Assembly (NCBI GenBank): GCA_021325135.1
Contig: JAJPHT010000016.1
Location: 22,449-86,448 of the forward strand
Origin: Pseudomonadota bacterium
GTDB lineage: Archaea > Thermoplasmatota > SW-10-69-26 > JACQPN01 > JAJPHT01
Direction: 5' to 3'
Length of the DNA stretch: 64,000 bases
A program made the position numbers and the translations under genes. Positions within the stretch are counted from its first letter, which is position 1. Every line of letters begins with the position of its first letter. The notes beneath the pieces are model-generated. The model was not told the origin of the DNA. It worked only from the letters and a program-made list of their open reading frames with translations, and searched no databases. Shown piece after piece: positions 2,066-63,847 of the stretch.

Positions 2066-3904
2066 ATGACCCGCCTTCTCAGCCTGGCCGCGCTGGCCCT
2101 CGCCGCGACGATGCTCGTCCCCCCGGGCGTCGCGACGTGGGCCTCCTACGGGAGCCTGGAGCCCGACAACAAGTACGACCTCGGAAGCTCGACCACGTGG
2201 CAGGACCCGCCGGGCCAGGCCACCAGCAGGGTCTACTTCAACGTCGTGAGCGGCGAGGCGGGGCTCTCCCTCCTCGCGAGCCCCAACAGCGCGACGCTGG
2301 GCGGCCGCGTCTACAACGTGGGCAACGGCGGCTTCGAGGCCATCCTCGGCGTGTGGGCCGACTGCAACCACGACGGCTACGTGGGCATGGCGGACGGCGC
2401 GCTGCGCGAGTACCGCGTGGAGGCGGCCGAGGCGCTGGGCCAGGCCATCGACGAGTCCATCTGCCCGCCCATGCCCGACGACGCCGCGGACGAAGGGCGC
2501 ATCCACAACGGCGGAGGGTGGATCACGGAGCTGCTCCCCATCTCCCCCGTGGACCTCCCGCCGGGCGACGCGGAGCACCGCTACCTCAACGCCTCCGCCA
2601 GCGTGGACGGGCGGCCGGGCACCGCCATCTGGGGCGACCGCATCGAGCCGCGCGCGCCCGACGCGCCTCCGGCGTTCGACGCGTGCAAGCAGAGCGCCAT
2701 CGCGCCCAGCCACCGCCAGGAGGAGCACACCGGCGGCCTGCTCCAGCACGCGGACTGCCTCGACGGGCGCGCGCCCGACGCGGCCCTCGCCCTCGCGCAG
2801 GCGCGCGACCCCACGGGCGCCACGCAGGCGCTCCCGCAGCCCAGCGCCCTCTGGGCCGACGGCGCGCCGCTGGACGTCGACGAGCCCGGCACGGACCAGG
2901 CCTGCAAGGGCGACCCCGCCAACCCGCCCCCGCAGCCCTGCCCGCAGGGAAACAACGCCATCGTGTACGGCGAGTTCGACTGCAGCGCCGCGCCCCTCGT
3001 GGACCAGACCGTGACCGTTCCCGACGCCACGGGCCTCGTGGGAGGTGATATCACGACGCGCGTCGTCGTCTACTCTCCCGGGACCCCGCAGGTCAACCCC
3101 GACGGCACTGCGCCCGCGACGGTGAACGAGACCATCGAGGAGAACGCGCTCCTGGACGACTGCGACGGCACCGACGACTTCGGGCACGACGTCTACCAGG
3201 GCACCGACGGCACGGACGCCGTGACGACGGCCGGCAAGAGCGCGCCCGAGCTGGAGTTCCGCTACGGCTTCAAGTCGCGCGAGGCGTGCACGGACCCCGA
3301 GGTCTCCGCGCCCGGCGGTGGCCCCTCGGCCTCGCTGCCCGTGGGCGCGGAGCGCTGCGGCGCGCCCGACGACCTGGGCGTCGTCCCCGGCTCGCACGCC
3401 CTCTCGTTCTTCGAGGTGACGGGCACCAACTTCGTCAGCGGCCAGCAGGAGGTGGGCAACGACGCGTGGGACGCGAACCACGTCTACGTGAACTCGGCGC
3501 CGCGCATCGGCGGCGCGAGCGTCGACGCCTCGGGCCAGACGAAGGCGAGCCTCGACCTCGCGCCGGCCGACTGGTACACCTTCTTCGCGCGCACGACGCT
3601 CTCGGGCGTCGCGTTCCCCGGCGCGGGGGGCCTCTACGGCGCGGAGTTCTGCGCCGCGGGCATCGGCCGCAACGCCCCCGCGACCAACGGGTGGGTGTGC
3701 GACCCCTCGCTCTGGAACCTGGACACCACCACGGGCCGGCAGGACCCGGGCCTCGCCCAGGTGGGCGATCCGTTCCAGCTGCGCGACGTGGACTGCTACG
3801 ACAGCAGCGTGGTCTCCCGCGAGTCGAGCCTCAACCCCACCGGCGAGGACCTGGGGCCGCGCAGCGCGGCGCCGCTCACCGACCCGGCGCACGGGTGCTG
3901 GTGA
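2066..3904 (+). CDS. Secreted acidic 14-Cys protein, paralogue B
   Basis: ATG at 2066 (MTRLLSLAALALAATMLVPPGVA|TWASYG). Shares the VYFNV, LGVWADCNxDGYVG, HTGGxLQH and LRDVDCYD motifs with paralogue A. Confidence 0.9.
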   Translation: MTRLLSLAALALAATMLVPPGVATWASYGSLEPDNKYDLGSSTTWQDPPGQATSRVYFNVVSGEAGLSLLASPNSATLGGRVYNVGNGGFEAILGVWADCNHDGYVGMADGALREYRVEAAEALGQAIDESICPPMPDDAADEGRIHNGGGWITELLPISPVDLPPGDAEHRYLNASASVDGRPGTAIWGDRIEPRAPDAPPAFDACKQSAIAPSHRQEEHTGGLLQHADCLDGRAPDAALALAQARDPTGATQALPQPSALWADGAPLDVDEPGTDQACKGDPANPPPQPCPQGNNAIVYGEFDCSAAPLVDQTVTVPDATGLVGGDITTRVVVYSPGTPQVNPDGTAPATVNETIEENALLDDCDGTDDFGHDVYQGTDGTDAVTTAGKSAPELEFRYGFKSREACTDPEVSAPGGGPSASLPVGAERCGAPDDLGVVPGSHALSFFEVTGTNFVSGQQEVGNDAWDANHVYVNSAPRIGGASVDASGQTKASLDLAPADWYTFFARTTLSGVAFPGAGGLYGAEFCAAGIGRNAPATNGWVCDPSLWNLDTTTGRQDPGLAQVGDPFQLRDVDCYDSSVVSRESSLNPTGEDLGPRSAAPLTDPAHGCW

Positions 3905-3907
3905 GGC

Positions 3908-4228
3908 TCAGAGCACGCGCTCGCGCAGCTTGCCCAGGCGGTCGCCCAGAAGGAAGAGCAGCTCGTGGCGGAAGGCCTCCACGTCGCGGACGGGGCGGCG
4001 CGCGAGCCGCTCGATGCGGCGCGAGAGGGCGGGGTCGCCCAGGATGCGCTCCACCCACGGCGCGTAGTCGATGCGGTGGTGCGCGACGAGGTGCCCGCTC
4101 TTGGCGCCCACCGCGTGGTGCAGGTCGCCCAGGTCGCGCGCCGACGTGCCGTCGGCGAAGCGGAACGCCTCGTCGCCCGCGCAGGGCGTGAGCGCGCGCC
4201 TGGCGACGGTCTGGAGGTTCTTCGCCAT
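3908..4228 (-). CDS. DUF5752-like small archaeal protein
   Basis: FRFADGTSARDLGDL...HH..DYAPWVERILGD resembles the DUF5752 repeat unit. Confidence 0.65.
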   Translation of the reverse strand: MAKNLQTVARRALTPCAGDEAFRFADGTSARDLGDLHHAVGAKSGHLVAHHRIDYAPWVERILGDPALSRRIERLARRPVRDVEAFRHELLFLLGDRLGKLRERVL

Positions 4229-4374
4229 GCGGGGGTCGGAGACGCCAGGAGGCTTGGCTTTGTCGGCAAGCAGCCCAGGGCCTCCATCGGAACGGTCCGC
4301 GGAACGTCCAGCGCGCGCGTTCGTGCGGCCGACGCTCCGGCGGCTTGAAATGCCCCCGGTGGCGTGCAGCGGCC

Positions 4375-10937: not shown

Positions 10938-12047
10938 TCAGGCGCGCCCGCGGCCGGCCAGCGCGGCGGGGTCGTGCCCCAGATCCGCGAGGCGCTGGCG
11001 CGTGGCGCCCTCCACGAGGAGCGGCCGGCGCGCGAGGTCCGAGGCGCGCGCGGAGCCGGTGAGGAAGCACGCCGTCCTCAATTCCAATTCCACCTGCCCC
11101 GCGAACGCGATGGCGTCCTTGGCGGAGCGGTTCGCGGCGTGGAGGAACGCGCTGGCGAAGCCCGCGAGCGTCGCGCCCAGGGCCAGCGCGCGCGCCGCGT
11201 CGAGCCCGCTGCGCAGGCCCCCCGTGGCGACCACCGGCAATCCCACCTGCGCTTCCAGCACGGAGACCGGGGTGGGGATGCCCCAGTCGCGGTAGAGCGC
11301 GCCGAGGCGCTCGCGGTCCGCGCGCCCTTCGGCCGCGGCGCGGAACGTCTCCACCGCCGCGAACGTCGTGCCCGAGAGCCCGCCCACGTCCAGCGCCGCG
11401 ACGCCGCACGCCTTGAGCGCGGAGGCCGTGCCGCGCGCCATGCCCGCGCCGGTCTCCTTGGCGATGACGGGGACGCCCAGGTCCTTGGAGAGGTCGCGGA
11501 TGGCGTCGCGCACGCCGCGGCTGCGCAGGTCCCCCTCGGGCTGCACCGTCTCCTGGAGCGGGTTGAGGTGGACGATGAGCGCGTCGGCGTCGAGCATCTT
11601 CACCAGCTCGTCGATCTGGGCGCGGGTGAGCGGCCCCTTCTTGGCCTGCGGCACCAGCTGGGGCGCGCCGATGTTCGCGCACACGAAGGGCACGGAGTGG
11701 TCGCGCACGACGGCGAAGCTGCGCCGCGCCTCCGGTGATAGCAAAGCGGCGCGCTGGGAGCCCACGCCCATGGCGAGCCCGCGTGCAGCGGCTGCGGCGG
11801 CGAGGTTGCCGTTGATGCGCTCCGCGTCGGGGTAGCCCCCCGTCATGCTGGCGATCATCACGGGCGCGCCCAGGTCCGCGCCCAGGAAGCGCGTGCGCAG
11901 GTCGACGCCCTCCAGGTCCACGTCGGGCGCGGCCTCGTGGAGCAGGCGCACGTCGTCCCAGGCGTTCTCCCGCGCGCGCACGTCCTGGCCCAGGATGATG
12001 TCGACGTGCTCCTGCTTGCGGCTGCGGGTCTGCTCGGGCTCGCCCAT
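10938..12047 (-). CDS. fni: Type 2 isopentenyl-diphosphate isomerase
   Basis: Motifs RKQEH, SMTGG, GVGSQR, HLNPLQE, KETGAG, GGLSGT and WGIPT. Confidence 0.95.
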   Translation of the reverse strand: MGEPEQTRSRKQEHVDIILGQDVRARENAWDDVRLLHEAAPDVDLEGVDLRTRFLGADLGAPVMIASMTGGYPDAERINGNLAAAAAARGLAMGVGSQRAALLSPEARRSFAVVRDHSVPFVCANIGAPQLVPQAKKGPLTRAQIDELVKMLDADALIVHLNPLQETVQPEGDLRSRGVRDAIRDLSKDLGVPVIAKETGAGMARGTASALKACGVAALDVGGLSGTTFAAVETFRAAAEGRADRERLGALYRDWGIPTPVSVLEAQVGLPVVATGGLRSGLDAARALALGATLAGFASAFLHAANRSAKDAIAFAGQVELELRTACFLTGSARASDLARRPLLVEGATRQRLADLGHDPAALAGRGRA

Positions 12048-12077
12048 GCGCAAGGCCCGGAGGCGGGGCGCCGCGCT

Positions 12078-12589: not shown

Positions 12590-13339
12590 TCAAGAAAGGA
12601 CGACGGTCCCCACCGTGGGCTTCCCCGCCAGCGTGTCGGCGAGCCTTCCGGGAACGGCGCCGTTGACCACGTGGACCTCGACGCCCGCCTTGGCGACCTC
12701 GCGCGCCCGCGCGAGCTTGCCCGCCATGCCCCCCGTGACGTCGTGCCCCCGCGCGTGGCCGCCGCCCACGTGGTCGTGGGGCCCGACGCGGGGCAGGAGC
12801 GCGCCGTCGGGCCAGCGGTCGTAGATGCCGTCCACGTCGGTCACGAACACGGCGCGCTCGGGGCGCAGCGCGCGCGCCAGCTCGGCCATGATGACGTCGC
12901 CGCTGAGGATGCCCCAGCCGCGGGAGGCGTCCAGCGCGCCGTCCCCTGATAGCACGGGCACGAAGCCCGCGGCCAGCGTGTCCGCCACCGGCGCGTGCGC
13001 GAAGGAGAGGAGCCGCCCCGAGTCCAGCCGCGCCAGGTCATACGTCGAGTGCGTGATGGCGGGGAGCCCCGCGTCGCGCAGCGCCTCGGAGACGAGCACC
13101 GACAGCTCGCGCACGTCGGCGTGGACCTGCGCGAACGCCGCGTCGCGGCGCGCGTCCCGGTCGCGCCCCTCCGCGAGGCGGAACTCCTTCGCCAGGACGT
13201 GGCCGTAGGAGCCCGCGCCGTGGACGACGACCAGCGGACCGGGCGCGGCGCGAAGCTCCTGCGCGAGGCGCGAGAGGTCCTCCAGGCGCGGCGCGCGGTA
13301 CGTTGCCTTGTCGGTGATGACGCTGCCGCCCAGCTTCAC
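12590..13339 (-). CDS. ipk: Isopentenyl phosphate kinase
   Basis: Motifs KLGGSVITDK, VHGAGSYGH, SGD and DVTGGM. GTG at 13339 overlaps the mvk stop (GTGA); the true start could be a few codons earlier. Confidence 0.92.
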   Translation of the reverse strand: MKLGGSVITDKATYRAPRLEDLSRLAQELRAAPGPLVVVHGAGSYGHVLAKEFRLAEGRDRDARRDAAFAQVHADVRELSVLVSEALRDAGLPAITHSTYDLARLDSGRLLSFAHAPVADTLAAGFVPVLSGDGALDASRGWGILSGDVIMAELARALRPERAVFVTDVDGIYDRWPDGALLPRVGPHDHVGGGHARGHDVTGGMAGKLARAREVAKAGVEVHVVNGAVPGRLADTLAGKPTVGTVVLS

Positions 13340-16771: not shown

Positions 16772-18232
16772 CTACCCGACGAGGTTCACCAGGGGGGGCA
16801 CGACGATGGGAAGCAGGATCAGCGCCAGGATGAAGAGGCCCAGCGCGGCGGTGGCGCGGCTGACCTGCTTCTGGACGCGGTCGAGCTTCTCCTGCGTCTC
16901 GGCGTCCTTGCCCTTGACCTTGAGGGCGCCCATCTCCTCGCGCTCCACGGCGACGCGGGCGCGGTCCACCTGATAGCGCTTCATGAAGTGGTCCGAGAGG
17001 GTGGCCTTGAACATCTGGCCGCCGTCCAGAGGCCCCGCGGGGAGCGCGTTGAAGGTGCCCAGCATGAGGTTGATCCAGACGATCCAGTAGAGGAGCGTCG
17101 CGAGCCCGAAGAACGCCGGCGCACCCAGGACCGCCAGCGGGCCGTGGAGGGTGAAGAGGCCGTTGTAGGGCGCGGCGAGCACGTCCACGCCCTGGCTGAA
17201 GATGAAGAAGGGGTACGCGACGTAGAAGAGGAAGCTGCTGAGGCTCCCGAAGGGGTGCTGGATCGCGTCGCGCATGGAGTCCAGCGTGTCCAGCCCGATG
17301 CCGGCGACGCCCAGGAACCCCTTGCCGCGGTTCTCGGGCACGTTGGAGGAGGGCGCGACCTTCTGCACGTAGTCGTACTTGTCCGTGAGGACCGCCTGCG
17401 TGCTGAGCGCCTTGCCCCCGCGCAGGTACTCGATGGGGATGGTCTGTCCCGCGTGCGTGCCGTTCATCACCGTGGTGTACGAGTCGCGGTCGGTGATGGC
17501 GACGCCGTTGACCTTGGTGAGCACGTCGCCGTTGCGCAGGCCCGCGGCCTCCGCGCCGCTGCCGGGCTCCACCGAGCCGATGACGACGCCGTGGCCGTCG
17601 TTGGCCAGCGTGAGGCTCCCCATGAACGCCACGGAGAGCAGGCCGCCCGCGACCAGCGCCAGCACGATGTTGCTGGTGGGGCCCGCGGCGAAGACGCGGT
17701 TCTTCTCCCGCGTCGTGGCCTTGAGGAGGTCCTCCTCGTCGGGCTCGACGAAGGCGCCGATGGGGATGATGAACGTGACGAGGCCGAGGCTCTTGACCTT
17801 CATGCGGCCCACGAACGCCATGACGCCGTGGCTCCCCTCGTGGATGAGGAGCGCCACCAGCAGCGCCAGCAGGCCGTAGCCCACGGGGATGAGGGGGTTG
17901 ACGCCGGGCACGCCGATGAGGAACTCGGGGGGAGGCGCGTTGGCCGCCGCCTCCTTGGGCGCGCTCACGTACTTCCAGAGGCTCGCCACCAGGAGCACGA
18001 ACACCAGGATGCCCATGGCCCACGTGAGCACGATGCCCGCGTCGGCGACGACCATCCAGAAGCGCCGCGGCGTCGCGACCTTCTGGATCGCCTTCTTGCC
18101 CAGCTGCGTGCGCCAGAAGAGGAACGGCCCGTTGAGCTCGAACCCGCCCTTGAGGGGCCCTCGCCCGCGCAGGAGGAGGACCAGCGCGGCGTAGGCCGCC
18201 AGCAGGATCAGGAAGACGAGCCAGCCGTTCAT
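16772..18232 (-). CDS. Site-2 (M50) intramembrane metalloprotease with PDZ domain
   Basis: HEGSH, GAFVEPD, AGPTSN, PDZ region and FNALPAGPLDGG. Confidence 0.93.
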   Translation of the reverse strand: MNGWLVFLILLAAYAALVLLLRGRGPLKGGFELNGPFLFWRTQLGKKAIQKVATPRRFWMVVADAGIVLTWAMGILVFVLLVASLWKYVSAPKEAAANAPPPEFLIGVPGVNPLIPVGYGLLALLVALLIHEGSHGVMAFVGRMKVKSLGLVTFIIPIGAFVEPDEEDLLKATTREKNRVFAAGPTSNIVLALVAGGLLSVAFMGSLTLANDGHGVVIGSVEPGSGAEAAGLRNGDVLTKVNGVAITDRDSYTTVMNGTHAGQTIPIEYLRGGKALSTQAVLTDKYDYVQKVAPSSNVPENRGKGFLGVAGIGLDTLDSMRDAIQHPFGSLSSFLFYVAYPFFIFSQGVDVLAAPYNGLFTLHGPLAVLGAPAFFGLATLLYWIVWINLMLGTFNALPAGPLDGGQMFKATLSDHFMKRYQVDRARVAVEREEMGALKVKGKDAETQEKLDRVQKQVSRATAALGLFILALILLPIVVPPLVNLVG

Positions 18233-20204: not shown

Positions 20205-21506
20205 ATGAGCGGCCCCACCTTCGGCTCCTCCGGCGTCCGCGGCCCCTTCGCCACCGTGGCGACGCCCGAACTGGCGCTGCGCCTGGGCCGCGCGGTGGGC
20301 GCCACGCGCCGCCGCGTCGTCGTGGGCCGCGACGCGCGCACGACGGGGCCCCTGCTGGAGCGCGCGCTGGTGGCGGGCCTCCTCGCCGGCGGCGCCGACG
20401 TCGCCACCTGCGGCGTGCTCCCCACGCCCGCCCTGGCGCACGCGGCGCGGCGCTTCGACGCGGGCGTCGTCGTCACGGCGAGCCACAACCCCGCGCCCGA
20501 CAACGGCTTCAAGCTCTGGGAGCCCGACGGCAGGGCCTTCGGAAGGGCGGAGCGCGCGGAGGTCGAGCGCCTGCTGGCCGCGCCGCCCGCCAGCGCCGCG
20601 TGGGACCGCGTGGGCGCCGTCTCCGAGGAGCCCGGCGCCGTCGAGGCGCACGCGCGGCGCGTCCTTGATATCACAGGCCCCCTTCCGCGCCGCCTGCGCG
20701 TCGTGCTGGACTGCGGGAACGGCGCCGCGAGCCGCGAGTCGCCGGCCCTCCTGCGCGCGCTGGGGTGCGACGTGATCACCCTCAACGCGCAGCCCGACGG
20801 CCACTTCCCCGGCCGCCCCAGCGAGCCCAGCGAGGAGAACCTCGCCGCGCTGAGGCAGGCCGTCGTGGCGGCGGGCGCCGACCTGGGCCTCGCGCACGAC
20901 GGCGACGCGGACCGCTGCATGGCCGTCACGCACGCGGGCCGCTACGTGCAGGGGGACGAGCTTCTCCTCCTCTTCGCGCAGGACCACGCGGGCAAGACCA
21001 TCGCGTGCCCCGTGGACGCGAGCCGCGCCATCGAGGACGCCTCGGGCTGCCGCGTGGTGCGCACGCGCGTGGGCGACGCCTACGTGAGCGAGCGCCTCGC
21101 CGAGGTGGGCGGCGCCTTCGGCGGCGAGGCCAGCGGCGCGTGGATCTTCCCCGAGATGAGCTGGTGCCCCGACGGGCCCCTCGCGGCCGCCATGGTGTGC
21201 CGCATGGTGGCGACGCGCGGTCCCCTGGAATCCCTCGTGGCCGCGCTGCCCCGCTACCCCCTGTGGCGGCACTCGTGGCGCATGGCGCCCGAGGAGATCG
21301 AGCCCACGATGCGGCGCTTCGCCGCGGCGCTGGCCGACGGCAAGGTCACGACGCTGGACGGCGTCAAGGCCGACTACGACGAGGGGTGGGTCCTCGTGCG
21401 CCCCAGCGGCACCGAGCCCAAGGTGCGCGTGACCGTGGAGGCCACCGACGCTGCCGGGCTCGAGGCGCTCAAGGCGAAGGTCGCGCGAGTCCTGCCTTTC
21501 CGATAG
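20205..21506 (+). CDS. glmM: Phosphoglucosamine mutase / phosphomannomutase
   Basis: Motifs FGSSGVRG, TASHNP, DGDADR, GGEASG and RPSGTEP. Confidence 0.88.
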   Translation: MSGPTFGSSGVRGPFATVATPELALRLGRAVGATRRRVVVGRDARTTGPLLERALVAGLLAGGADVATCGVLPTPALAHAARRFDAGVVVTASHNPAPDNGFKLWEPDGRAFGRAERAEVERLLAAPPASAAWDRVGAVSEEPGAVEAHARRVLDITGPLPRRLRVVLDCGNGAASRESPALLRALGCDVITLNAQPDGHFPGRPSEPSEENLAALRQAVVAAGADLGLAHDGDADRCMAVTHAGRYVQGDELLLLFAQDHAGKTIACPVDASRAIEDASGCRVVRTRVGDAYVSERLAEVGGAFGGEASGAWIFPEMSWCPDGPLAAAMVCRMVATRGPLESLVAALPRYPLWRHSWRMAPEEIEPTMRRFAAALADGKVTTLDGVKADYDEGWVLVRPSGTEPKVRVTVEATDAAGLEALKAKVARVLPFR

Positions 21507-22687: not shown

Positions 22688-25110
22688 GGCTCCACGCTCA
22701 CGGTGGACGTGCCGTCGTCCAGCGCCTCCACGCGCAGCACGGTCTCGGCGGCGTCCTTGACGTCGGGAATGTGCGTGACGAGAAGGATTTGCCGGAAGTG
22801 GCCGGAGAGCCCCTTGAGCGCCTGGAGGATGTTGGCCTTGCGGATCTCGTCCTGGCTGCCGAAGATCTCGTCGAGGGCGAGGAAGCCGAAGCCGTCGGTG
22901 CCGGCGCGCTCGGCGACGACCTGGGAAACCGCGAGGCGCAGGCAGAGGTTCGCGAGGTCGCCCTCGCCGCCGCTGAAGCGCGCCAATTCGAAGGCCTCGC
23001 CCTCGTCCAGCACGCGCAGGCCATAGTCCTCGCCCACCTCCAGGTCCGCGTAGCGCCCGTCGGTCATCTCGCGGAAGAGGCGGCCCGCGTGGCTCGACAA
23101 CAGCGGGCGCAGGCGGCCGATGAGGTGGTCCTTGAACTCGGGGAGGAGCCCCTGGTCGCGGTCGCCGGCCAGTTGCTCCAGGAGCGTCAGGCGCGTCTCC
23201 AGCGCCTTCGCGCGGGCGGCGAGGTCCTGCTGGTGCGCGATCTCGGCCTCCAGCGCCTTCGCGGCGTCGGCCTGCCGCGCGAGGTCGCCCTGCGCGCGCT
23301 CGCGCTGGATGCGCGCCTCGGTCAAGCGCCCCTCGGCGACGTGCGTCGCGGCCTCGGCGGCCTCGTGCGCGGCGGCGTCGAAGCCCAGCGCGTCGCGGCG
23401 GGCCTGCGCCTGCGCGACGGCCTCGCGCGCCTCGGCCTCGGAGAGGCGAAGCTCCTCCAGGAGCGCGAGGAGGTCCTTCTCGCGGTCGGCCTGCGCGGCG
23501 AGCGTGGCGTGCCGCCGCGCGCCGGCCTCCAGGTCCGCGACGAGCCTGCGCGTCGCGGCCTCCGCGGCGGCGTCGTAGGGCTCCTCGCCCAGGGCCGTCG
23601 CCTGGTCGGCGAGCCGCGCGACGCGCGCCCTGGCGTCGCCCTCCCGCGCGCGGGCGGCCGCGAGGCGCGCCTCGTCGCCCGCGAGGCGCTGGAGCTTCTG
23701 GGAAAGCTCCTCCGCGCGCGCGGCGAGGTCGGAGAGCGCCTTGCGCGCCGCCGCCTCCTCGGCGCCCAGCGCGGCGAGGCGCGCGGAGCCCTCCGCGATG
23801 GCCGCGCGCTCGCGCGCCATCTCGGCGTCGAAGCCGTGGAGAAGCTCGCCGTGGTGCTCGCGCAGGGGGCGCGTGCAGGTGGGGCAGGGCGTCTCGGGGC
23901 CCATGTCGCGGATGCGCTTCGCGCGCGTCTCGACCTCGTGCAGGGCGCGCGCCCGCTCGCGGACGCCCGCGTCCACCGCGCTGCCCGCCTTCACGGCCGC
24001 GTCGAGGCGCGCCTGCAGCACGGGGCGCTGCGCCGCGACGCGCTCGGCCTGCGTGCGCACCGCCGCGAGGGCGGGGAGGCTCTCCTGGAGCGCGGCGGCT
24101 TCGGCGGCGGCGCGCTCGGCCTCCGTCTGCGCCTTGGCCATCTCGGCGCGCGTGCGCGACAGCTCCTCGTGGCGGACGCGCCGCGCGGCCAGCGCCTCCA
24201 GCCGCTCGCGCGCCTCGGGGAGCGACGCGAGGCGGGGCGCGATCAGCGCGGCCTCCGCGGCGGCGGCGCGCGCCTGCGCAAGCTCCGCCTGGCGCCCCTG
24301 GGCCTGCGCGACGACGTGGCCGAGGCGCTGCTCCGCGAGGCGCATCGCGGCGAGGACGAGCTTGTGCTCCTCCGCGCGCTTGCGCCCCTCGTCGCGCCGC
24401 GCGCGCAGGTCCTCCACCTCCTCCACCAGGGCCAGGATGCGCGCCTCGGCGTCGGCGAGCCGCGCGCGCCCCGCCTGCGCCTCGGCGCGGCCGCGCTGGA
24501 GCGCCTCTGCGAGCGCGGCGGGGTCCTTGAGCGCGGCGCGCAGCCCGCCAAGCTCGGCCTTGGCGTCGCGGCGCCGCGTGCGCGCGCCCGCGATGGCGCC
24601 GTCCACCGCGTCCAGGCGCAGCAGGGATATCAAAAGCCGCTTGCGGTCGCTGGCTTTGGCGTCGCTCAAGGCGGAAAGCTCGCGCTGGCGGGCGACCAGC
24701 GTCGTGAAGAACGCGACGCGGTCCATGTGGAAGAGGCGCTCGACGTAGGACGCGGCCTCCGCGTGGCTGCCGGCGCCGGGCGGCACGACGAGCCGGCCGT
24801 CCACCTTCACCGCCGCGACGTGGCTCTCCCCCTTGCCCAGCAGCTCGCGCGTCACCTCGTAGGCGTGCGCGCCCAGGCGGAACTCCAGGTGGACGCGCAC
24901 GTCGTCCGAAGGCGCGGCCCCGCGGCGCTTGATCAGGTCCTTTCCGGTGCGCGCCGCCTCGTGGCCGTAGAGGCACCACCCGATGGCCTCCAGCAGCGTG
25001 GACTTCCCCGCGCCGTTGCGGCCCACGAGGGCGATGACGCCGTCGGGAAGCTCCAGGTCGACGAACCGCAGGCGCCGGAAGTTCTGGATGCGGACGCGGT
25101 CGATCCTCAC
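22684..25110 (-). CDS. rad50: Rad50/SbcC SMC-family ATPase
   Basis: Walker A GRNGAGKST, coiled coil, zinc hook CPTC, signature FSGGE, LDE and VTH. Confidence 0.93.
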   Translation of the reverse strand: MRIDRVRIQNFRRLRFVDLELPDGVIALVGRNGAGKSTLLEAIGWCLYGHEAARTGKDLIKRRGAAPSDDVRVHLEFRLGAHAYEVTRELLGKGESHVAAVKVDGRLVVPPGAGSHAEAASYVERLFHMDRVAFFTTLVARQRELSALSDAKASDRKRLLISLLRLDAVDGAIAGARTRRRDAKAELGGLRAALKDPAALAEALQRGRAEAQAGRARLADAEARILALVEEVEDLRARRDEGRKRAEEHKLVLAAMRLAEQRLGHVVAQAQGRQAELAQARAAAAEAALIAPRLASLPEARERLEALAARRVRHEELSRTRAEMAKAQTEAERAAAEAAALQESLPALAAVRTQAERVAAQRPVLQARLDAAVKAGSAVDAGVRERARALHEVETRAKRIRDMGPETPCPTCTRPLREHHGELLHGFDAEMARERAAIAEGSARLAALGAEEAAARKALSDLAARAEELSQKLQRLAGDEARLAAARAREGDARARVARLADQATALGEEPYDAAAEAATRRLVADLEAGARRHATLAAQADREKDLLALLEELRLSEAEAREAVAQAQARRDALGFDAAAHEAAEAATHVAEGRLTEARIQRERAQGDLARQADAAKALEAEIAHQQDLAARAKALETRLTLLEQLAGDRDQGLLPEFKDHLIGRLRPLLSSHAGRLFREMTDGRYADLEVGEDYGLRVLDEGEAFELARFSGGEGDLANLCLRLAVSQVVAERAGTDGFGFLALDEIFGSQDEIRKANILQALKGLSGHFRQILLVTHIPDVKDAAETVLRVEALDDGTSTVSVEP

Positions 25111-26228
25111 GAGGACCCTCCCGCGGCGGCCTCGGCGAGGAGCGTCTTCGCCTCGGCGAGGAGCGCGTCCCGGTTGTCCCCCTGGAGCGTGCGCCGGGAG
25201 AGGAAGCCCTCGAACTCGTCCTCCAGGCTGCCCAGCGCGGCGCTCGCCACGCCCTGTGCCTCGCGGCGGATGATGTCAGGCTGGAGGTCGAAGTGGAACG
25301 CGGCCTCGGTGAGGCTCTTCACGCGGCGGAAGTCCAGCGTCGCGTGCACGTGGGCCGGGATGCCCGTGACGCGGAGGCGCGCGATGGCGTCGCGCAGGTC
25401 CGCGGAGGCGAGGCGCTCGTAGAGCGCGCCGGGGATCGTCGCCTCGTCCACGCCCTCGCACGAGAGCGTGGGCAGCATGCGCATGGGGCGCGAGGGCAGG
25501 ATGCGCGGCTCCACCGCCCCCTTGCGCAGGTCCACGAGGTTGACGCCCTTCTCCTCGCCGCACTCCTTGAAGGAGCACCGCTCCGTGCTGCCGGCGTACC
25601 ACGCGCGCGGCGCGACCTCCACCGCGCGGTGGTAGTGCCCCAGCGCGACGTAGTCCATCCCCTGGGGGAGCTCGTTCTGCGGGACGACCTGCTCGTGGAA
25701 CTCGCCGGTCCTGAAGTCGCCCACACCCACGACGCCCGCGTGCAGCGTGGCCACGTTCCAGCGCGCGTCCGCCAGGGGCCGCACGTCGCGAAGCTGGGCC
25801 AGCAGCGCGTCGTTGTCCGCCGCGTGCGGCGTCGCGTGGATGGCCAGGTCGCCCACGCGCACCACCTCGGTCCTCCCCTTGTAGACCGCCCGCACGCCCG
25901 GCACGAACTCCAGGAGGCGCAGCACCGCCCCCGTCTCGCGCAGCCGCGGCGCCTCGTGGTTCCCCGAGATGACGACGAAGGGGATGCGCGCCTCGTGGAG
26001 CCTCCGGCACTGGTCCATGACGTGGTGCAGCGCGCGGTTCGTGGGCCTCACGCTATCAAAAAGATCGCCGCTGTGGAGCACGACGTCCACGCGCTCCGCG
26101 ATGGCGAGGTCCACCACCCGGCGGAAGGCGTCGAAGAAGTCCTGCTCCCTGGCGTTGAGGCCCTCCGGAGTGACGCGGCTGTACGCGGCGAACCCGACGT
26201 GGGTGTCGCTGACGTGGAGGAGCCTCAC
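25107..26228 (-). CDS. mre11: Mre11/SbcD nuclease
   Basis: Motifs SDTH, GDLFD, GNHE, LH and ALGHYH. GTGA overlap with rad50. Confidence 0.93.
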   Translation of the reverse strand: MRLLHVSDTHVGFAAYSRVTPEGLNAREQDFFDAFRRVVDLAIAERVDVVLHSGDLFDSVRPTNRALHHVMDQCRRLHEARIPFVVISGNHEAPRLRETGAVLRLLEFVPGVRAVYKGRTEVVRVGDLAIHATPHAADNDALLAQLRDVRPLADARWNVATLHAGVVGVGDFRTGEFHEQVVPQNELPQGMDYVALGHYHRAVEVAPRAWYAGSTERCSFKECGEEKGVNLVDLRKGAVEPRILPSRPMRMLPTLSCEGVDEATIPGALYERLASADLRDAIARLRVTGIPAHVHATLDFRRVKSLTEAAFHFDLQPDIIRREAQGVASAALGSLEDEFEGFLSRRTLQGDNRDALLAEAKTLLAEAAAGGSS

Positions 26229-30693: not shown

Positions 30694-30957
30694 GGCCGCC
30701 GCGTCGTCCTCGGCCTGCATGATATCATGAAGCCTCTGCGCGTCGGGCGCGCGCTCCGCGAAGTCCAAGAGCAGCGCGTCCGCGCGGAGGATGCCCGCGT
30801 CGCTGCCGTCCACGAACAGGTAGAGCCAGTCCCCCGGCTGCCCGAAGTGCCGCGCGTCGCGCACCTGGAGGCTCTGCCGTGACAGGGTGTCGTCGCCCAG
30901 GGCCTCGTCGAGGCGCGCGCGCTGCGAGGCTTTCAGCCGGTAGACCTGCCAGGCCAT
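30667..30957 (-). CDS. Conserved small archaeal hypothetical protein
   Basis: 96 aa; DD.LSRQS...RD and C-terminal AASGLGSIFG. Confidence 0.7.
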   Translation of the reverse strand: MAWQVYRLKASQRARLDEALGDDTLSRQSLQVRDARHFGQPGDWLYLFVDGSDAGILRADALLLDFAERAPDAQRLHDIMQAEDDAAASGLGSIFG

Positions 30958-38549: not shown

Positions 38550-38717
38550 CCCGCGGGCGGAGGGCGCGCGGCACCCATAAGAAACATACGAATCGTGAAT
38601 GCCGCGCCGGCCCGCCCGTTTCGGCGCAACGAGGCGCCCCTCCCTGAGGGGCGCGAATGATAGCTTCGGGGCACTCCGGCGCGCAAGGCCTTGCCTGGGA
38701 GGCGGCTCGGGTGGTCC

Positions 38718-40215: not shown

Positions 40216-40253
40216 GGCCGGCCGCACCCGAAGGCCGGCTCTTGAAGCTGCCC

Positions 40254-41732: not shown

Positions 41733-42317
41733 ATGAAGACCCTCGTGATCGACAACTTCGACTCGTTCACGTACAACCTCGTCCAGTACCTGGGAGAGCT
41801 GGGCGCGGACCCGGTGGTGCGCCGCAACGACGCCATCACCGCCAAGGAGGCCGAGGCCATGGCGCCTGACGCCATCGTGATCTCGCCCGGCCCGGGCAAC
41901 CCCGCGGACCCCCGGTACTTCGGCGTGTGCGCGGACCTGCTCACGGGCCTCTCGCGCTCCACGCCCACGCTGGGCGTCTGCCTGGGGCTCCAGGGGTTCG
42001 CCCACGTCTACGGCGGCAAGGTCGTGCACGCGCCGCGCGTCGTCCACGGCAAGTCCAGCCTCGTGGAGCACGACGGGCGCGGCGTCCTCGCGGGCGTGCC
42101 CAGCCCCTTCCGCGCCGCGCGATATCATTCCCTCGTCGTCGAGCGCGAGAGCCTGCCCGCCGAGATCGAGGTGAGCGCGTGGACCGCCGAGGGCGAGGTC
42201 ATGGGCGCGCGTCACCGGAGGCATCCCATCGAGGGCGTGCAGTTCCACCCCGAGAGCATCCTCACGGACCACGGCATGGCGATCCTGCGCAACTTCGTCC
42301 AGGGGGCGCGCCGCTGA
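41733..42317 (+). CDS. trpG: Anthranilate synthase component II
   Basis: Motifs IDNFDSFTYNL, SPGPG, GVCLG and QFHPES. Confidence 0.95.
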   Translation: MKTLVIDNFDSFTYNLVQYLGELGADPVVRRNDAITAKEAEAMAPDAIVISPGPGNPADPRYFGVCADLLTGLSRSTPTLGVCLGLQGFAHVYGGKVVHAPRVVHGKSSLVEHDGRGVLAGVPSPFRAARYHSLVVERESLPAEIEVSAWTAEGEVMGARHRRHPIEGVQFHPESILTDHGMAILRNFVQGARR

Positions 42318-44305: not shown

Positions 44306-45085
44306 GTGGCCACGCTCCCCGACTTCGGCGCGTCCGCCCGCGAGCGCGTGCGGACCGGCTACTACGACCTGCGCCGGCTGCCCGACTTCTGCCCGCCCCG
44401 CGAGCCCCCCTCGCTGCGCGCCGCGCTCGCCCGCGCCAAGGTCCCCGTGGTGGCCGAGATCAAGCCCGCCTCGCCCACCGCGGGCGCGCTGCGGCCGGAG
44501 GCCGACGCGGGGGCCCTCGCGCGCGCCTTCGTCGCCGCGGGCGCCTGCGGCGTCAGCGCCCTCGCCGTGAAGGAGGGGTTCGGCGGCTCGCTGGAGAACG
44601 TCATCGCCGCCAGCGGCGCGGGCGCCCCGGTGCTGTTCAAGGACTTCGTCGTGGACGAGGCGCAGCTGAAGGCCGCGCGCCGCTGCGGCGCCAGCGCCGC
44701 GCTCCTCATCCTCGACCTCACGGGCGAGGCGGAGACGGCGCGCCTCCTCGCCCGCGCCCACGCCCTGGGCCTCGAAGCCCTGGTGGAGGTCTACGACGAG
44801 GAGGGGTATCGCGCCGCGGCCAAGCTCGACGCGGACCTCCTGGGCGTCAACAACCGCGACCTGCGCCGCGAAGGGCTCCCCGTGGACCCTGCACGCGCCG
44901 GGAGGGTGCTATCATCCTGCGGGCCCGCCCGCGCGCCCACCCTCGCCCTCTCCGGCGTGGAGACCGCCGCCGACGCGCGCCGCCAGATGGCCGCCGGCGC
45001 CGCGGGGGTCCTCGTGGGGAGCGCCCTCATGCGCGCGCCCGACCCCGCCGCCGCCCTGCGCGCGCTCACGGGGGCCTCCGCGTGA
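44306..45085 (+). CDS. trpC: Indole-3-glycerol phosphate synthase
   Basis: Motifs [24 protein letters not shown] and LVGSALM. Confidence 0.92.
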
Positions 45086-45687
45086 CGCTCGTCAAGGTGT
45101 GCGGCCTTCGCGAGGAGGCCCACGTCCGCGCCGCGCGCGACGCCGACGCCGTGGGCTTCGTGGTCGAGAGCCCCAGGAGCCCGCGCGACCTGCCCCTCGC
45201 CGAGGCCGCGAGGCTCGTCCGCGCCGCGGGGCCGCTCCAGACGACGGTCGCCGTCACCGCGAGCCGCGACGCGGACGCCCTCCTGCGCATCGTGGACCAA
45301 GTGCGCCCCCACGCGCTCCAGGCGCCCGCGGACGCGGCCTTCGCGCCCGTGCGCAAGCTGCACCCCACCCTGAGGATCCTCGCCGCGGCGTGCCCCGGCG
45401 ACCCCGCGCCCCCCGAGGCGGACCTCCTCGTCCTCGACGCCGCGACGGGGGACGGATACGGCGGCACGGGCCGCCGCCTCGACCCCGCCCTCGCGCGCAG
45501 CGTGATATCATCCTCGCCCATCCCCGTCCTCCTCGCCGGGGGCCTCGCGCCGGAGAACGTGGCGCAGGCCATCCGCGACGCGCGCCCCCACGGCGTCGAC
45601 GCCAGCAGCGGCCTGGAGACCGAGGGCCGCAAGGACCCCCGCAAGATCGCCGAGTTCGTCCGCCAAGCCAGGAGCGCCCTCCCATGA
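45082..45687 (+). CDS. trpF: Phosphoribosylanthranilate isomerase
   Basis: Motifs VKVCGL, GGTG, LAGGL.PENV and GVDASSGLE. Confidence 0.92.
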
Positions 45688-47620: not shown

Positions 47621-47743
47621 CTTCCAAGGCTCAACCTCGGGCTCTGCGGATCGTTTCTGGCGCCGTTGAGCGTTGCGTCCCGGCCCGTGCCGCGACCCTC
47701 GATATCATGTTAGCATGCGGCGCTCCGGGCGCGGAGCCTCACG

Positions 47744-55788: not shown

Positions 55789-55800
55789 CGCGCCTTGCCC

Positions 55801-57195
55801 ATGCAGGTCGTCGACGCGCTTCGCCTGGCCGCCAGCGGCCTCCGGGAGCGCAAGATGCGCACCGCCCTCACGCTCCTGGGCATCGTCATCGGCACGAGCA
55901 TGATCGTCGCCCTGGAGGCGTCCACGCAGGGGCAGAGCCGCGCCATCAGCGACCAGCTGGAGAAATTGGGCCCCACGACGCTCATCGTGCAGGTGAACGG
56001 CTTCGGGGGCAACCAGCGCAACTTCACGCAGAACGATATCACGACCATGGAGGGGCTCGACCACGTGAAGTCGGCCTTCCTCGCCGTCGAGGGGGACGGG
56101 CAGATCTCGCGAGGTGGCGAGACGGACTCCGTGGCCATCCTGGGCGTGGACCCCGCCGACCTGCCCACCCTCGTGCGCGGCCTCCAGGTCCAGGACGGGA
56201 GCGTCTACCAGCCGGGGGACCTCACCGCCGCGTTCCTGGGCAGCACCGCCGCGACGCCCACGGACGCGACGAAGGTCCCCAGCGCGGCGGGCGACGCCGT
56301 GCAGGTGTCGACGCAGGTCCGGCAGTTCACGGCGCAGGGGCGCGGCGCGCAGCAGACCATCACGCGCACCTACGTCGTGTCGGGCATCGCGGCGCCCTTC
56401 GGCAGCGCGCCCTTCGTCAACGTCGACGGCACGGTGTTCATGACGCCCCGCGCCGCGCAGCAGCTCCTCGGCCTCCCCCTCACGCAGTACAACGAGATCG
56501 TCGTCTTCGCCGACACGCCCGACGACGTGAGCGCCGTGCAGAGCGAGATCCAGGCCGCATACGCCAACGTGCGCGTGCTCTCGGGCACGCAGCTGGCCAG
56601 CGCCATCAGCAGCGTGTACGGCACCATCACGACGCTCCTGGAGAGCGTCGCCGCCATCTCGCTCATCGTCGCGGGCGTGGGCATCGCGAACACCATGTTC
56701 GTGAGCGTGATCGAGCGCACCACCGAGATCGGGACGCTCAAGGCGCTGGGCTTCAACGGACGGCAGGTGCTCTCCATCTTCCTCCTGGAGGCGAGCCTCA
56801 CGGGCGTCGCCGGGGGCGTCCTGGGCTGCCTCGCGGGTGTCGGCGTCGCGTTCGGCATCGGCCACTTCATCTCCTTCTCCCCCACCGGCAACGCCGCGGC
56901 GCAGGGCGCCCAGCGCGCGGCCGCCAACGTCGCCACGCGCGGCGGCGGGGGAGGGGGCTTCGGCGGCCGCGGAGGCGGCTTCGGCGGGGGCGGCTTCGGA
57001 GGCCCGGGGGGCGGAGGGTTCGGTGGCGGCGGCCTCGGCGCCAGCGCCGCCTCCGCGCACGCGGCGCCCGTGTTCACGCCCGAGATGTTCCTCGTCGTCA
57101 TCGGCTTCGCCATCCTCGTCTCCGTGGTGGCCGGCCTCATCCCCGCGCGCAAGGCGTCGCGGATGGACCCCGTCATCGCCCTCAAGCGTCTTTGA
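55801..57195 (+). CDS. ABC permease (MacB/FtsX family)
   Basis: Motifs RTALTLLGIVIG, SVIERTTEIGTLKALG and PARKASRMDP. Confidence 0.92.
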   Translation: MQVVDALRLAASGLRERKMRTALTLLGIVIGTSMIVALEASTQGQSRAISDQLEKLGPTTLIVQVNGFGGNQRNFTQNDITTMEGLDHVKSAFLAVEGDGQISRGGETDSVAILGVDPADLPTLVRGLQVQDGSVYQPGDLTAAFLGSTAATPTDATKVPSAAGDAVQVSTQVRQFTAQGRGAQQTITRTYVVSGIAAPFGSAPFVNVDGTVFMTPRAAQQLLGLPLTQYNEIVVFADTPDDVSAVQSEIQAAYANVRVLSGTQLASAISSVYGTITTLLESVAAISLIVAGVGIANTMFVSVIERTTEIGTLKALGFNGRQVLSIFLLEASLTGVAGGVLGCLAGVGVAFGIGHFISFSPTGNAAAQGAQRAAANVATRGGGGGGFGGRGGGFGGGGFGGPGGGGFGGGGLGASAASAHAAPVFTPEMFLVVIGFAILVSVVAGLIPARKASRMDPVIALKRL

Positions 57196-57212
57196 TATCA
57201 GGTGAGAACCCC

Positions 57213-59963: not shown

Positions 59964-60060
59964 AGCAAAAGCGAGAAAGGGGCTCCGCTGCGAAGTCCGA
60001 CGAAGAAGAGAAAAGATATCACCGGCGGAGCGCAGGGCCCCGCCGGGTGGTGTGCGCTCC

Positions 60061-62087: not shown

Positions 62088-62954
62088 TCAGAGGGCGACG
62101 TCCACGCCGTACACGCGCTTCGGGTTCTCCGCGTGGACGACCCAGGCCTGCTCCTCGGTCATGAGGCCTTTGGACACCAGGTCCGCGGTGCGGCGCGGCA
62201 CGGTCTTGGGCCCCAGCACCGCGCCGGGGTAGCGCACGTCGCACATGTAGTCGGTCTCCATGAGGAAGCGCGTGCCCCCCGCGAGGGCCTCCTCCGCGCT
62301 CCCCTTGCCGATGAGCACGCTGGGCCAGAGGCCGTGGTTCACGCGCACGTCCACGATGGGCGTCGAGTAGTGCTTCACCGCGCGCTCCGCGGGCAGGCCC
62401 GCGGCCTTCAGGTGCGCGGCGAGGTCCGCGAAGCTCTCCGGGGTCGCGGTCTCGGCGTGGATCTGCACGGGGCAGCCCGCGTCCCGCGCCAGGGCGAAGC
62501 TGTATTCCATGAGCGCGTTGGCCCGCGCCATGATATCATCTGCGACGGGGCGCCAGTGGGGCCGTCCTACTTCGGCCATGGCGACGGCCTTCCCCTCGCG
62601 CACGAGCCGCGCGGCGGCCTCCAGCGCGCCGCGATGCACGGCCTCGGCCTCCTCCACGGGCACGCCCGCGCTGAGCAGGCTGGTGAACTCCGCGGGGTGG
62701 GGGCTCACGGCGACCGCGACGCGCAGGCCCAGCGTCCTCGCGCGCTCGGCCATCTCCAGCGTGATGGCGAACTGCCGCTCGTGGTCCGCGACGCTGCGAT
62801 TGATCCCGGCGCCCTCGTGGTAGGGCTTGTGGACCAGCATGACGTGCGTGCCGCCGGCGTGAAGGAAGTCCTTGGCCGCCTGCTCCCACGGCCCCGCGGG
62901 GTCGAGGTGGAAGTGGTTGTCCCACACGGGGTAGCGCGGGGCGGGCGCCGGCAT
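62088..62954 (-). CDS. TatD-related metal-dependent hydrolase
   Basis: Motifs DNHFH, HPAE, EVGRPH, QIHAE, KHY and METDY. Confidence 0.88.
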   Translation of the reverse strand: MPAPAPRYPVWDNHFHLDPAGPWEQAAKDFLHAGGTHVMLVHKPYHEGAGINRSVADHERQFAITLEMAERARTLGLRVAVAVSPHPAEFTSLLSAGVPVEEAEAVHRGALEAAARLVREGKAVAMAEVGRPHWRPVADDIMARANALMEYSFALARDAGCPVQIHAETATPESFADLAAHLKAAGLPAERAVKHYSTPIVDVRVNHGLWPSVLIGKGSAEEALAGGTRFLMETDYMCDVRYPGAVLGPKTVPRRTADLVSKGLMTEEQAWVVHAENPKRVYGVDVAL

Positions 62955-63060
62955 CGGGGGGCCCAAGCGGATCGCGCGGCTTCAGGGTATCTTCCTTTCG
63001 CCGCCGTCGCCTCGGCGCGCGGGGCCCCCGCTATGCCCTCCGGCGCCAAGGAGGGGCGTG

Positions 63061-63795
63061 ATGGCCGCGCTGCGCGTCATGACGTTCAACCTCCGGCGCG
63101 ACGTGGCCGCCGACGGGCCCCACCGGTGGGACGCGCGCAAGGAGCTGGTCGCCCGCCTGGTGCGCCGCCACGCGCCCCACGTCGTGGGCACGCAGGAGGG
63201 GCTCCCCCACCAGCTCGCCGACCTGGACGCGCGCCTTGCGGGCTATCGCCGCGTGGGCGGCTGCCGAAGGGGCGACGGCACCGACGAGCACAACGCGCTC
63301 TACTACGACGCCGCGCGCCTGGAATTGCTTGAGGCCGGCGACTTCTGGCTCAGCGACGCGCCCCACGAGCCGGGCAGCGCGACGTGGGGGAACCGCCACC
63401 CGCGCATCGCGACGTGGGCGCGCTTCATGGACCGCGTCACGGGGCGCCCGATCACCGTCGCCAACACGCACCTGGACCACGAGAGCGCGCGCGCCCGCCG
63501 CGAGGCCGCCGCCCTCCTCGCGCGCCGCCTCCCCGCCGCCATCCTCCTGGGCGACTTCAACGAGGAGCCCGGCGGCGAGGTCCACGCGGTCCTCTGCGGC
63601 GCGTCGCGCAAGGACACGACGCACCTCGACCGCACGCCCACCTTCCACGGCTTCAGCGCGCAGAGCCGCGCGCGCCTGGACTGGATCCTCGTCCCCGTGC
63701 ACGCGCATGTGAAGCGCGCGGCCGTGGTGCGCGAGCGGCCCGAAGGGCGCTATCCTTCGGATCACGACCCCGTCATGGCGGAGATCGTGGTGTGA
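63061..63795 (+). CDS. Endonuclease/exonuclease/phosphatase family protein
   Basis: Motifs MTFN, GTQE, NTHLD, GDFN, LDWI and SDHDP. Confidence 0.92.
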   Translation: MAALRVMTFNLRRDVAADGPHRWDARKELVARLVRRHAPHVVGTQEGLPHQLADLDARLAGYRRVGGCRRGDGTDEHNALYYDAARLELLEAGDFWLSDAPHEPGSATWGNRHPRIATWARFMDRVTGRPITVANTHLDHESARARREAAALLARRLPAAILLGDFNEEPGGEVHAVLCGASRKDTTHLDRTPTFHGFSAQSRARLDWILVPVHAHVKRAAVVRERPEGRYPSDHDPVMAEIVV

Positions 63796-63847
63796 GGCCA
63801 AAAGCGCAAGATATCATTCCAGCGTGCGCCAGCCTGGACGCGCATTG

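Follow-up and report, generated by a model that had tools for sequence, protein, structure and literature searches.

The phenomenon closest to the one described here is that of HIP1, the highly iterated palindrome GCGATCGC, and the alternate highly iterated palindromes of cyanobacteria (Elhai 2015, PMC4390886; Xu, Lawrence & Durand 2018, PMC5861425). More recent work has tied HIP1 to transformation (PMC13756078). HIP1-like words have gone unexplained for decades, in part because they are ancient and ubiquitous in their phylum. Here, we have analyzed an AT-rich palindrome, TGATATCA (hereafter, the perfect box), and its variants in a 64,000-nucleotide stretch of DNA (the window; positions 22,449 to 86,448 of contig JAJPHT010000016.1) and in the genome to which it belongs, G000, a 3.77-Mb assembly of 51 contigs with 71.6% GC from an uncultured Thermoplasmatota archaeon. 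Its GlmM-type protein is most similar (74%) to one from a metagenome-assembled genome (MAG) named 'Thermoplasmatota archaeon', and contigs of the strain also occur in two metagenome studies, one of a soil and one of a mine. A search of the literature for the word returned primers and unrelated uses only. We lean, with a confidence slightly above even, towards reading it as a genus-specific iterated box that is recognized by a sequence-specific protein on double-stranded DNA and has spread against codon cost.

Genes were called with a simple caller based on GC content at third codon positions (GC3), giving 3819 genes and 89% coding sequence; within the window, its calls agree with Pfam for the genes tested. 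Genome-wide, the perfect box occurs 210 times, compared to about 4, 2.6, 1.3 and 7.7 occurrences expected from Markov models of orders 0 to 3. It is the most over-represented 8-mer of G000 (z = 103 at order 3), with TGATAGCA/TGCTATCA in second place. In coding sequence we found 157 perfect sites, while within-gene synonymous-codon shuffles predict 2.08, and strictly intergenic DNA holds 18 where 1.07 are expected. The excess is 75-fold relative to synonymous shuffles, and 27-fold and 166-fold relative to Markov models of order 3 and 2, respectively, in the 15- to 300-fold range of HIP-type palindromic octamers. Variant words are enriched 5- to 18-fold over synonymous shuffles. In the window, with 72–73% GC, there are 6 perfect boxes for 0.02 expected from dinucleotide-preserving shuffles, and 28 strand-hits of TGATAKC for 1.65 expected. 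A preliminary description of the window, made from its letters, had noticed this excess and proposed confronting it genome-wide with Markov and synonymous-codon-shuffled nulls; the excess survives all of them, and is both real and stronger than that description could show. In terms of density, perfect boxes appear once per 18 kb (210 in 3.77 Mb), short of the roughly one per kb of HIP1 or DNA uptake sequences (DUS), and oriented 7-mer units (1062 genome-wide) about once per 3.5 kb.

The word is abundant in all five species of the genus, with 210, 111, 378, 141 and 53 perfect boxes, while eleven other genomes of the class, all at least 80% complete, contain 0 to 9. In a sample of 251 genomes from the phylum, many families gave high counts relative to a reversed-word control, which is too low in mid-GC genomes. 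In five of these high-count genomes, the same-composition palindromes AGATATCT and TCATATGA were nearly as frequent as TGATATCA; one of the five gave 425, 187 and 133 occurrences of TGATATCA, AGATATCT and TCATATGA, compared to 210, 3 and 1 in G000. We therefore discarded the phylum-wide excess as apparent only, and since the control palindromes match the counts elsewhere, the specific excess is limited to one genus among the genomes searched. Unlike in the cyanobacterial case, the switch is here sharp and recent, with five species carrying the word and sister genera without it, so that the gene responsible could be singled out by comparing closed genomes.

One could argue that no signal exists, and that the word is a by-product of codon usage, of a common dipeptide, of context-dependent mutation or of the copying of mobile elements. 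At first sight the coding registers suggest just such an Asp-Ile effect, with 139 of the 157 sites reading xxT-GAT-ATC-A and the other 18 xTG-ATA-TCA. However, synonymous shuffles yield 2.1 sites instead of 157, and the Asp codon GAT makes up 14.9% of the Asp codons before ATC but 2.1% before other codons starting with A, a 7-fold difference. The preliminary description would have been undermined by enrichment confined to a single dipeptide or frame; instead, all three frames, gene junctions and spacers are enriched, and at 31 sites the TGA of the box serves as a stop codon. Against the shuffle null, the top over-represented 7-mer of every frame derives from the motif, with observed and expected counts per frame of 130 and 3.0 for CGATATC, 111 and 1.8 for TGCTATC, 81 and 1.8 for GATATCA, 97 and 0.4 for GCTATCA, and 165 and 6.2 for TGATATC. 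The flanks of the sites have a period of 3 bases, in phase with the box, and are not conserved, which also led us to reject mobile-element copies as its source. Together with the 0 to 9 sites of sister genera of similar make-up, these data leave an absence of any signal hardly credible.

Boxes follow a defined grammar. Of all coding TATCA 5-mers, 87% lie inside NGMTATCA (M = A or C), and none of the other NNNTATCA words exceeds its expectation. The outer letter is preferentially T, then C or A, and the double variant GCTAGC is absent. In the main register, a single synonymous transition would turn TGACATCA into the perfect box, yet this word is not enriched; hence, the variants are not a mutational halo of perfect sites. 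Enrichment of CGATATCA reaches 64-fold where a T would create a stop codon (CGA-TAT-CA), and is 1.5-fold where a T is possible, so the best box permitted by the protein seems to be carried in each context. Judging from these sequence preferences, the grammar is typical of protein recognition.

We then considered the amino-acid contexts able to hold a box by synonymous choice. Boxes occupy 24 of the 28 C-Y-[HQ] contexts, TAT is used in 49% of the xGC-TAY-CA contexts (the genome average is 7%), and the full palindrome is found in 26% of the X-D-I contexts followed by a codon starting with A. In L-S contexts, which need both CTA and TCA, about 2% hold a box. The converted share thus drops with rising codon cost, which fits a steady force per box acting against a translational cost. 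With a quarter to half of the cheap contexts converted, the case shows how strongly a force acting on DNA can prevail over codon usage, and even over protein sequence, in an archaeon, which is relevant for codon-usage models, for the detection of horizontal transfer and for the annotation of very GC-rich MAGs. Coding sequence also has junction preferences of its own. Codons ending in T are 3–7 times rarer before codons starting with A than before any others, a strong avoidance of TpA at codon junctions throughout the genome. Other codon-pair words lie far above the synonymous-shuffle expectation, such as GAG-CTT-C (678 vs 85) and GAA-TTG-G (124 vs 10), and may reflect the avoidance of palindromes such as GAGCTC.

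Two boxes at 25 bp or less from each other are otherwise very rare, with the exception of a cluster in the spacer of 60–100 bp that separates a conserved hypothetical gene of 144 codons from a METTL5-like methyltransferase gene (PF05175, with an NPPF motif), downstream of which lie the genes for Csl4, RpoL and TruD. In G000 the cluster is at C33:188576-188664. The spacer contains 3 to 7 boxes in four species of the genus and one in the fifth (G003). The arrangement GCTATCA-N8-TGATAGC is found at or near the start codon of the METTL5-like gene in G000, G001 and G002; G001 has an extra box between this pair and the ATG, as well as two tandem perfect boxes, and G004 carries TGATAGC-A-GCTATCA followed by three units 11 bp apart. 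No boxes were found in the same spacer of three sister genera (G005, G006 and G007). The locus hence presents a multi-site, operator-like array conserved at an orthologous promoter in five genus members, and the proteins of the species that keep it are only 65–79% identical. A blind mutational process would hardly keep a cluster at one locus across species, which suggests that a factor acting in trans binds the box, and points to a sequence-specific reader of double-stranded DNA. The cluster favors, indirectly and without establishing it, the binding protein that was among the options of the preliminary description, and it provides a concrete bait for such a reader. We rejected as conserved a second cluster, adjoining NMD3, which is found upstream of this gene in G000 and downstream of it in G004, and not in the other three species. 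Across the genome there is no operator-type concentration of boxes at a fixed distance from gene starts, with 75% of the perfect sites lying inside genes.

The strand on which the non-palindromic units lie tells at which level the box is read. Inside genes GMTATCA is mostly on the sense strand, while in spacers between genes of the same direction we counted 28 units in sense and 42 in antisense. As the bias vanishes in spacers, the one seen inside genes reflects coding constraint (the TGA and TAG stops) and not an effect of transcription or RNA, and we rejected a transcription-coupled asymmetry on the same grounds. An oriented word of the Chi or KOPS type is likewise not what we found, given a palindrome whose variants have no sense bias outside genes. 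The absence of sense bias in tandem spacers points to a box read on double-stranded DNA. Taken with the excess over all nulls in every frame, at junctions and in spacers, this upholds the DNA-level signal proposed in the preliminary description, although none of the three options it named for that signal (a chromosome-organizing protein, an uptake-like sequence or a methylation-linked palindrome) is established.

A signal at the level of RNA or translation would make TGAT the tail of a Shine-Dalgarno sequence (GGTGAT), or would have inverted boxes form hairpins in the messenger. Some boxes do look the part: about 17 form TGATATCATG, a stop codon joined to the next start; the genes for S7, S28e, L13 and S17 have GGTGATATCA(N0-2)ATG; and a 7-bp hairpin could form from GCTATCA-N8-TGATAGC ahead of the METTL5-like start. 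Nevertheless, three quarters of the boxes are intragenic and evenly spread along genes, the non-palindromic units have no sense bias in transcribed spacers, the putative stems are the word found all over the genome, invariant and without compensatory changes, and a hairpin is impossible for TGATAGC-A-GCTATCA. We consider this explanation highly improbable.

Regarding the distribution of boxes along the chromosome, gaps between perfect sites in G000 have a coefficient of variation of 0.94, compared to 1.04 ± 0.10 for random placement, in an assembly whose 51 contigs hide long periods. We found neither regular spacing nor clustering of perfect sites in it, and the check on spacing that the preliminary description proposed returned Poisson-like gaps. 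A 216-kb contig described as carrying an integrated element (68% GC) contains 3 sites where 12 are expected, and genes with the lowest GC3 have 1.4 sites per 100 kb, compared to 4–8 in other genes. This scarcity runs opposite to chance, as AT-rich words should form more easily in such genes.

A word that is genus-specific, rich in resident DNA and poor in acquired DNA, and that alters proteins, could be a tag of self DNA for its exchange by uptake or recombination, comparable to the DUS and to the uptake signal sequences (USS). In favor of this idea, HIP1 has been linked to transformation efficiency and type IV machinery (PMC13756078; bioRxiv 10.1101/2024.09.10.611283). However, a search for ComEC (PF03772) and DprA (PF02481) gave no hit in any of nine genomes of the family, so that no bacterial-type machinery was found there for the uptake-like option of the preliminary description. 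Perfect boxes and even 7-mer units are far below the density of DUS and USS, of about one per kb, and the word is palindromic. We know of no archaeal uptake signal, and regard a self-DNA tag as improbable.

The word also turns over between species. We aligned 272 kb of G000 with its closest relative, G002, at about 80% DNA identity. G002 has 44 sites in this alignment and G000 19, of which 9 are common to both, while any aligned 8-mer is identical in 31–34% of cases; the conservation in orthologues that the preliminary description asked about was thus measured, and is not clearly above this background. The partners of non-shared sites often read GAC-GTC, GAC-CTC or GAC-GCC, so that the creation of the box changed Val, Leu or Ala to Ile. 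Of 30 sites from G004 mapped onto G000, 6 are perfect in the latter, and several boxes shared by these two species stand at operon junctions, before the genes for S17, sufC and argB and upstream of the L3 operon. With cheap contexts almost saturated, two species can acquire the same site independently, and we therefore do not claim purifying selection on positions. A further box stands just upstream of a gene that looks like Ku from its translation, at C27:97125 in G000 and at the orthologous place in G004 (locus L132); the G004 copy is perfect and that of G000 reads TGCTATCA.

Saturated cheap contexts and shifting positions are also what a drive predicts. In the model put forward by Elhai for HIP1, a methyltransferase acts on the box, or here on a GATATC/GMTATC core, and methyl-directed repair favors completed sites, which accumulate as a by-product without function. 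The pattern is indeed HIP1-like, an 8-bp palindrome whose one-letter deviations fall mainly on the outer letters (PMC4390886), and G000 has NucS, as many archaea do, and several candidate methyltransferases. Two of these, both C5 enzymes, have an adjoining Vsr gene (C8:39295-40792 and C27:116672-118609). Still, a methylase of the Dam/EcoRV type (PF02086) was not found in G000, G001, G003 or G004. A genus-specific N4/N6 or C5 methylase was rejected, as the PF01555 and PF00145 enzymes shared within the genus have counterparts, almost unchanged in their core, in sister genera that lack the word. Vsr was rejected too, since its pairs with methylases are not genus-wide and its action, towards C, has the wrong direction for an A/T-rich word. 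MutS is essentially absent from G000, where it gives a single weak hit on a mobile contig, and a blind ratchet does not predict a cluster at one locus in five species. With this balance, we find a methylation-linked repair ratchet unlikely, though more probable than a self-DNA tag.

Readers were also looked for among the genes around boxes. The 144-aa neighbor of the METTL5-like cluster is a widespread archaeal hypothetical protein with no Pfam match. A 97-aa ribbon-helix-helix (RHH)-like protein, encoded near a cluster in G003, is present across the order with an unchanged core and DNA-reading strand, and has no boxes nearby in most species. A winged helix-turn-helix protein on C13, whose gene has two boxes after it in G000, is not shared by the whole genus. 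These three candidates were rejected. Among the genes downstream of intergenic boxes we found no obvious autoregulated DNA-binding gene; they include several ribosomal-protein genes, in which the ribosome-binding GGTGAT is extended to a box. A separate arrangement was found on a mobile-looking contig of G000 with 69% GC (C29:2308-5655), where genes similar to PAPS-reductase/DndC and to tgt/DpdA, judged by eye from their translations, flank a divergent spacer with two perfect boxes. It may be a DNA-modification module of the 7-deazaguanine type.

Coming back to a box read by a protein on double-stranded DNA, the mechanism would be as follows. The box would span 8 bp, with an exact TATCA half and another half that relaxes to N-G-[A/C], and its reader, probably dimeric, would have arisen or shifted its specificity in the ancestor of the genus. 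Single boxes would then have spread over the resident chromosome wherever the protein code permits, each box bringing a slight but lasting advantage, or a bias in transmission, that opposes the cost of rare codons. As an outcome, cheap contexts would be largely converted and costly ones rarely, with some amino acids changed. The same factor could also act as a local operator-binding protein before the METTL5-like methyltransferase/Csl4/RpoL gene group, while the copies along the chromosome may organize the nucleoid, mark resident DNA or serve some other end. Our data show the excess, its presence in all frames, its restriction to the genus, the turnover of sites and the conserved cluster; a protein reader, its dimeric state and a spread of the boxes by selection, as opposed to a repair drive, are inferred. 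A more specific version, which we put forward tentatively and hold to be rather doubtful, is that the box is a word for resident DNA owned by the genus, with a new reader that marks or organizes the native chromosome as opposed to integrated elements and that regulates a ribosome-biogenesis operon. If true, it would be an archaeal counterpart of the genome words of the HIP1 and DUS type.

Several observations weigh against a protein reader. Every candidate that we examined failed, and no reader was identified. Most boxes are inside genes, which is unusual for a regulator, and their Poisson-like spacing shows no organizing period in the 51-contig assembly. Orthologous positions are not clearly conserved above background (9 of 19 against 31–34%), and an overlap of this size would also be expected if the same cheap contexts had been saturated independently. 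The Ala-Ile reading of GCTATCA, GCT-ATC-A, is found in 7 of 1277 contexts with no enrichment, which a pure DNA-word model explains only through the general avoidance of T|A at codon junctions. Finally, a protein that senses methylation could also be the reader of the cluster at one locus, which is then compatible with the methylation model.

In the window itself, the preliminary description proved accurate in its details. Its 22 or so sites are all members of NGMTATCA, the six perfect boxes are where it placed them, and 14 of the 16 GATATC sites extend to TGATATC or GATATCA, the exceptions being those at 6189 and 8389. The five codon readings it quoted are exact, and boxes lie, as it noted, mostly in genes and in differing frames, with three coding registers occupied. 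Six boxes are in the xxT-GAT-A[TG]C register. Four of them are perfect: 3046..3053, in gene 2033-3904(+), reading GGT-GAT-ATC-ACG (G-D-I-T); 20666..20673, in a gene of the phosphoglucosamine/phosphomannomutase family (20166-21506, plus strand), with CTT-GAT-ATC-ACA (L-D-I-T); 62531..62538, in a TatD-family gene (62088-62966, minus strand), whose sense reading is GAT-GAT-ATC-ATG (D-D-I-M); and 30720..30727, which sits 27 bp beyond a Na+/H+ exchanger gene (29455-30693, plus strand) and inside a doubtful open reading frame of 96 codons (30667-30957, minus strand), so that it may be intergenic. The two variants are CGCTATCA (26051..26058, plus strand), in a gene for a Mre11-like phosphoesterase (25107-26228, minus strand; sense TTT-GAT-AGC-GTG, F-D-S-V), and CGATATCA (56034..56041, plus strand), in a MacB/FtsX-type permease gene (55795-57195, plus strand; AAC-GAT-ATC-ACG, N-D-I-T).

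Five boxes use the register xTG-[AC]TA-TC[AC]. The variant TGATAGCA, that is, GCTATCA on the minus strand, is found at 11736..11743 in gene 10938-12053(-), with two very rare codons in TTG-CTA-TCA (L-L-S), and at 12947..12954 (minus) in gene 12590-13339(-), with the sense reading GTG-CTA-TCA (V-L-S). GGATATCA is at 24625..24632 (plus), in a Rad50/SbcC-like gene (22684-25110, minus strand; sense TTG-ATA-TCC, L-I-S), and TGCTATCA at 44907..44914 (plus), in gene 44306-45085(+), again with GTG-CTA-TCA (V-L-S). The fifth, at 45503..45510, is a perfect box in a trpF-type gene for PRA isomerase (45082-45687, plus strand), read as GTG-ATA-TCA (V-I-S).

The third register, xGM-TAT-CAx, contains six variants. 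TGATAGCG lies at 16971..16978 (minus) in gene 16772-18232(-), with CGC-TAT-CAG (R-Y-Q) in sense. The 1730-codon gene 31206-36398(-) carries TGATATCG twice on the minus strand, at 32758..32765, where CGA-TAT-CAC (R-Y-H) makes a T in the first position impossible because TGA is a stop, and at 35671..35678, with the sense CGA-TAT-CAG (R-Y-Q). A cyclophilin-FKBP isomerase gene (38884-40227, minus strand) has two copies of TGATAGCC, also on the minus strand, at 39098..39105 (sense GGC-TAT-CAC, G-Y-H) and 39830..39837 (sense GGC-TAT-CAG, G-Y-Q). CGATATCA is at 42120..42127 (plus) in gene 41733-42317(+), as CGA-TAT-CAT (R-Y-H).

The perfect box at 57193..57200 provides, with its TGA, the stop codon of the permease gene 55795-57195(+), and the next gene (57213) begins 12 bp on. 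Four variants are intergenic: TGATAGCT at 38658..38665 (minus), between genes 37089-38549(-) and 38718-38882(+); CGATATCA at 47700..47707 (plus), 36 bp upstream of gene 47744-48850(+); and AGATATCA, on the plus strand, at 60014..60021, between genes 59046-59771(+) and 60061-61938(-), and at 63809..63816, 13 bp after gene 63058-63795(+) and before a gene for the signal recognition particle (SRP) RNA. This last RNA (63919-63999, minus strand), at the end of the window, matches the bacterial small SRP model of Rfam with 46.4 bits, for a gathering threshold of 40.

Other repeats and signals were found along the way. A perfect box joined to a GC hairpin (GGGGGCTTCGCCCCC) is present in two near-identical intergenic stretches of G000, C36:161694-161760 and C49:64189-64255, as a small repeated element. 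The window also contains a palindromic repeat of about 110 bp, at 26229-26372, between the Mre11-like gene and the next one, which folds as one long hairpin (-92.6 kcal/mol, z = -7.25). It has about 20 matches in G000 and about 30 in G002, on both strands, and a weaker, partial one at about 59878-59936 of the window; from its sequence, it looks like a family of MITE/REP-like elements (miniature inverted-repeat transposable elements or repetitive extragenic palindromes). Concerning gene starts, a TATA box or other promoter element was rejected as an explanation of the word, since pieces of the motif are flat across -100 to +20 with no positional peak. The likely promoter element in upstream regions genome-wide is CTTAT[C/G], located around position -30 relative to the start codon, a distance that suggests many leaderless messengers, and the remaining genes show a GGAGG peak at -15 to -11.

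To contextualize our results, we compared the box with other short words read on DNA. Noc, SlmA and MatP are nucleoid-occlusion or chromosome-organizer proteins with palindromic sites (NBS, SBS and matS, respectively) throughout the chromosome. Like them, the box is a palindrome with tens to hundreds of chromosome-wide copies, many of them intragenic. However, those sites measure 13–16 bp, are positioned relative to the origin or terminus and have known readers, while the box has 8 bp, a random-looking spacing and a site number that varies 7-fold within the genus.

Short-box operators read by small dimers include the tandem 8-bp met boxes of MetJ, the 7-bp heptad arrays of the omega repressor and the GATC clusters of SeqA. 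With these the METTL5-upstream cluster shares boxes of 7–8 bp, spacings of 8, 11 and 15 bp, both orientations and a place beside the start codon. In those cases only a few sites exist, all in control regions, unlike the hundreds of boxes found inside genes here, and a reader of the MetJ or omega type was not identified, the one RHH-like candidate tested being the order-wide protein with the unchanged DNA-reading strand. The DUS of Neisseria and the USS of Pasteurellaceae are, like the box, lineage-specific short words, rich in resident and poor in acquired DNA, that bend protein sequences. Unlike it, they are non-palindromic, appear about once per kb and are read by a competence machinery, from which ComEC and DprA were not found here.

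With HIP1, the box has in common an 8-bp palindrome in tens- to hundreds-fold excess, a presence in genes (in several frames) and spacers, restriction to a lineage, one-letter variants mostly at the ends, and a reader and purpose that are unsettled. It differs from HIP1 in its archaeal host, in being an AT-rich word in a 72% GC genome (HIP1 is GC-rich) and in being some 10 to 20 times less dense (about one box per 18 kb vs about one per kb). It also differs in that no cognate methyltransferase was found, no periodic spacing is seen in the fragmented assembly, positions show no clear excess conservation, and a local cluster of boxes is conserved at one gene. The term 'HIP1-like' of the preliminary description is hence the best one available for the pattern, although its density and spacing differ from those of HIP1, and a methyltransferase that tracks the genus was not found. 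By this comparison, we have filed the archaeal TGATATCA as a HIP1-type phenomenon, yet not as a member of HIP1.

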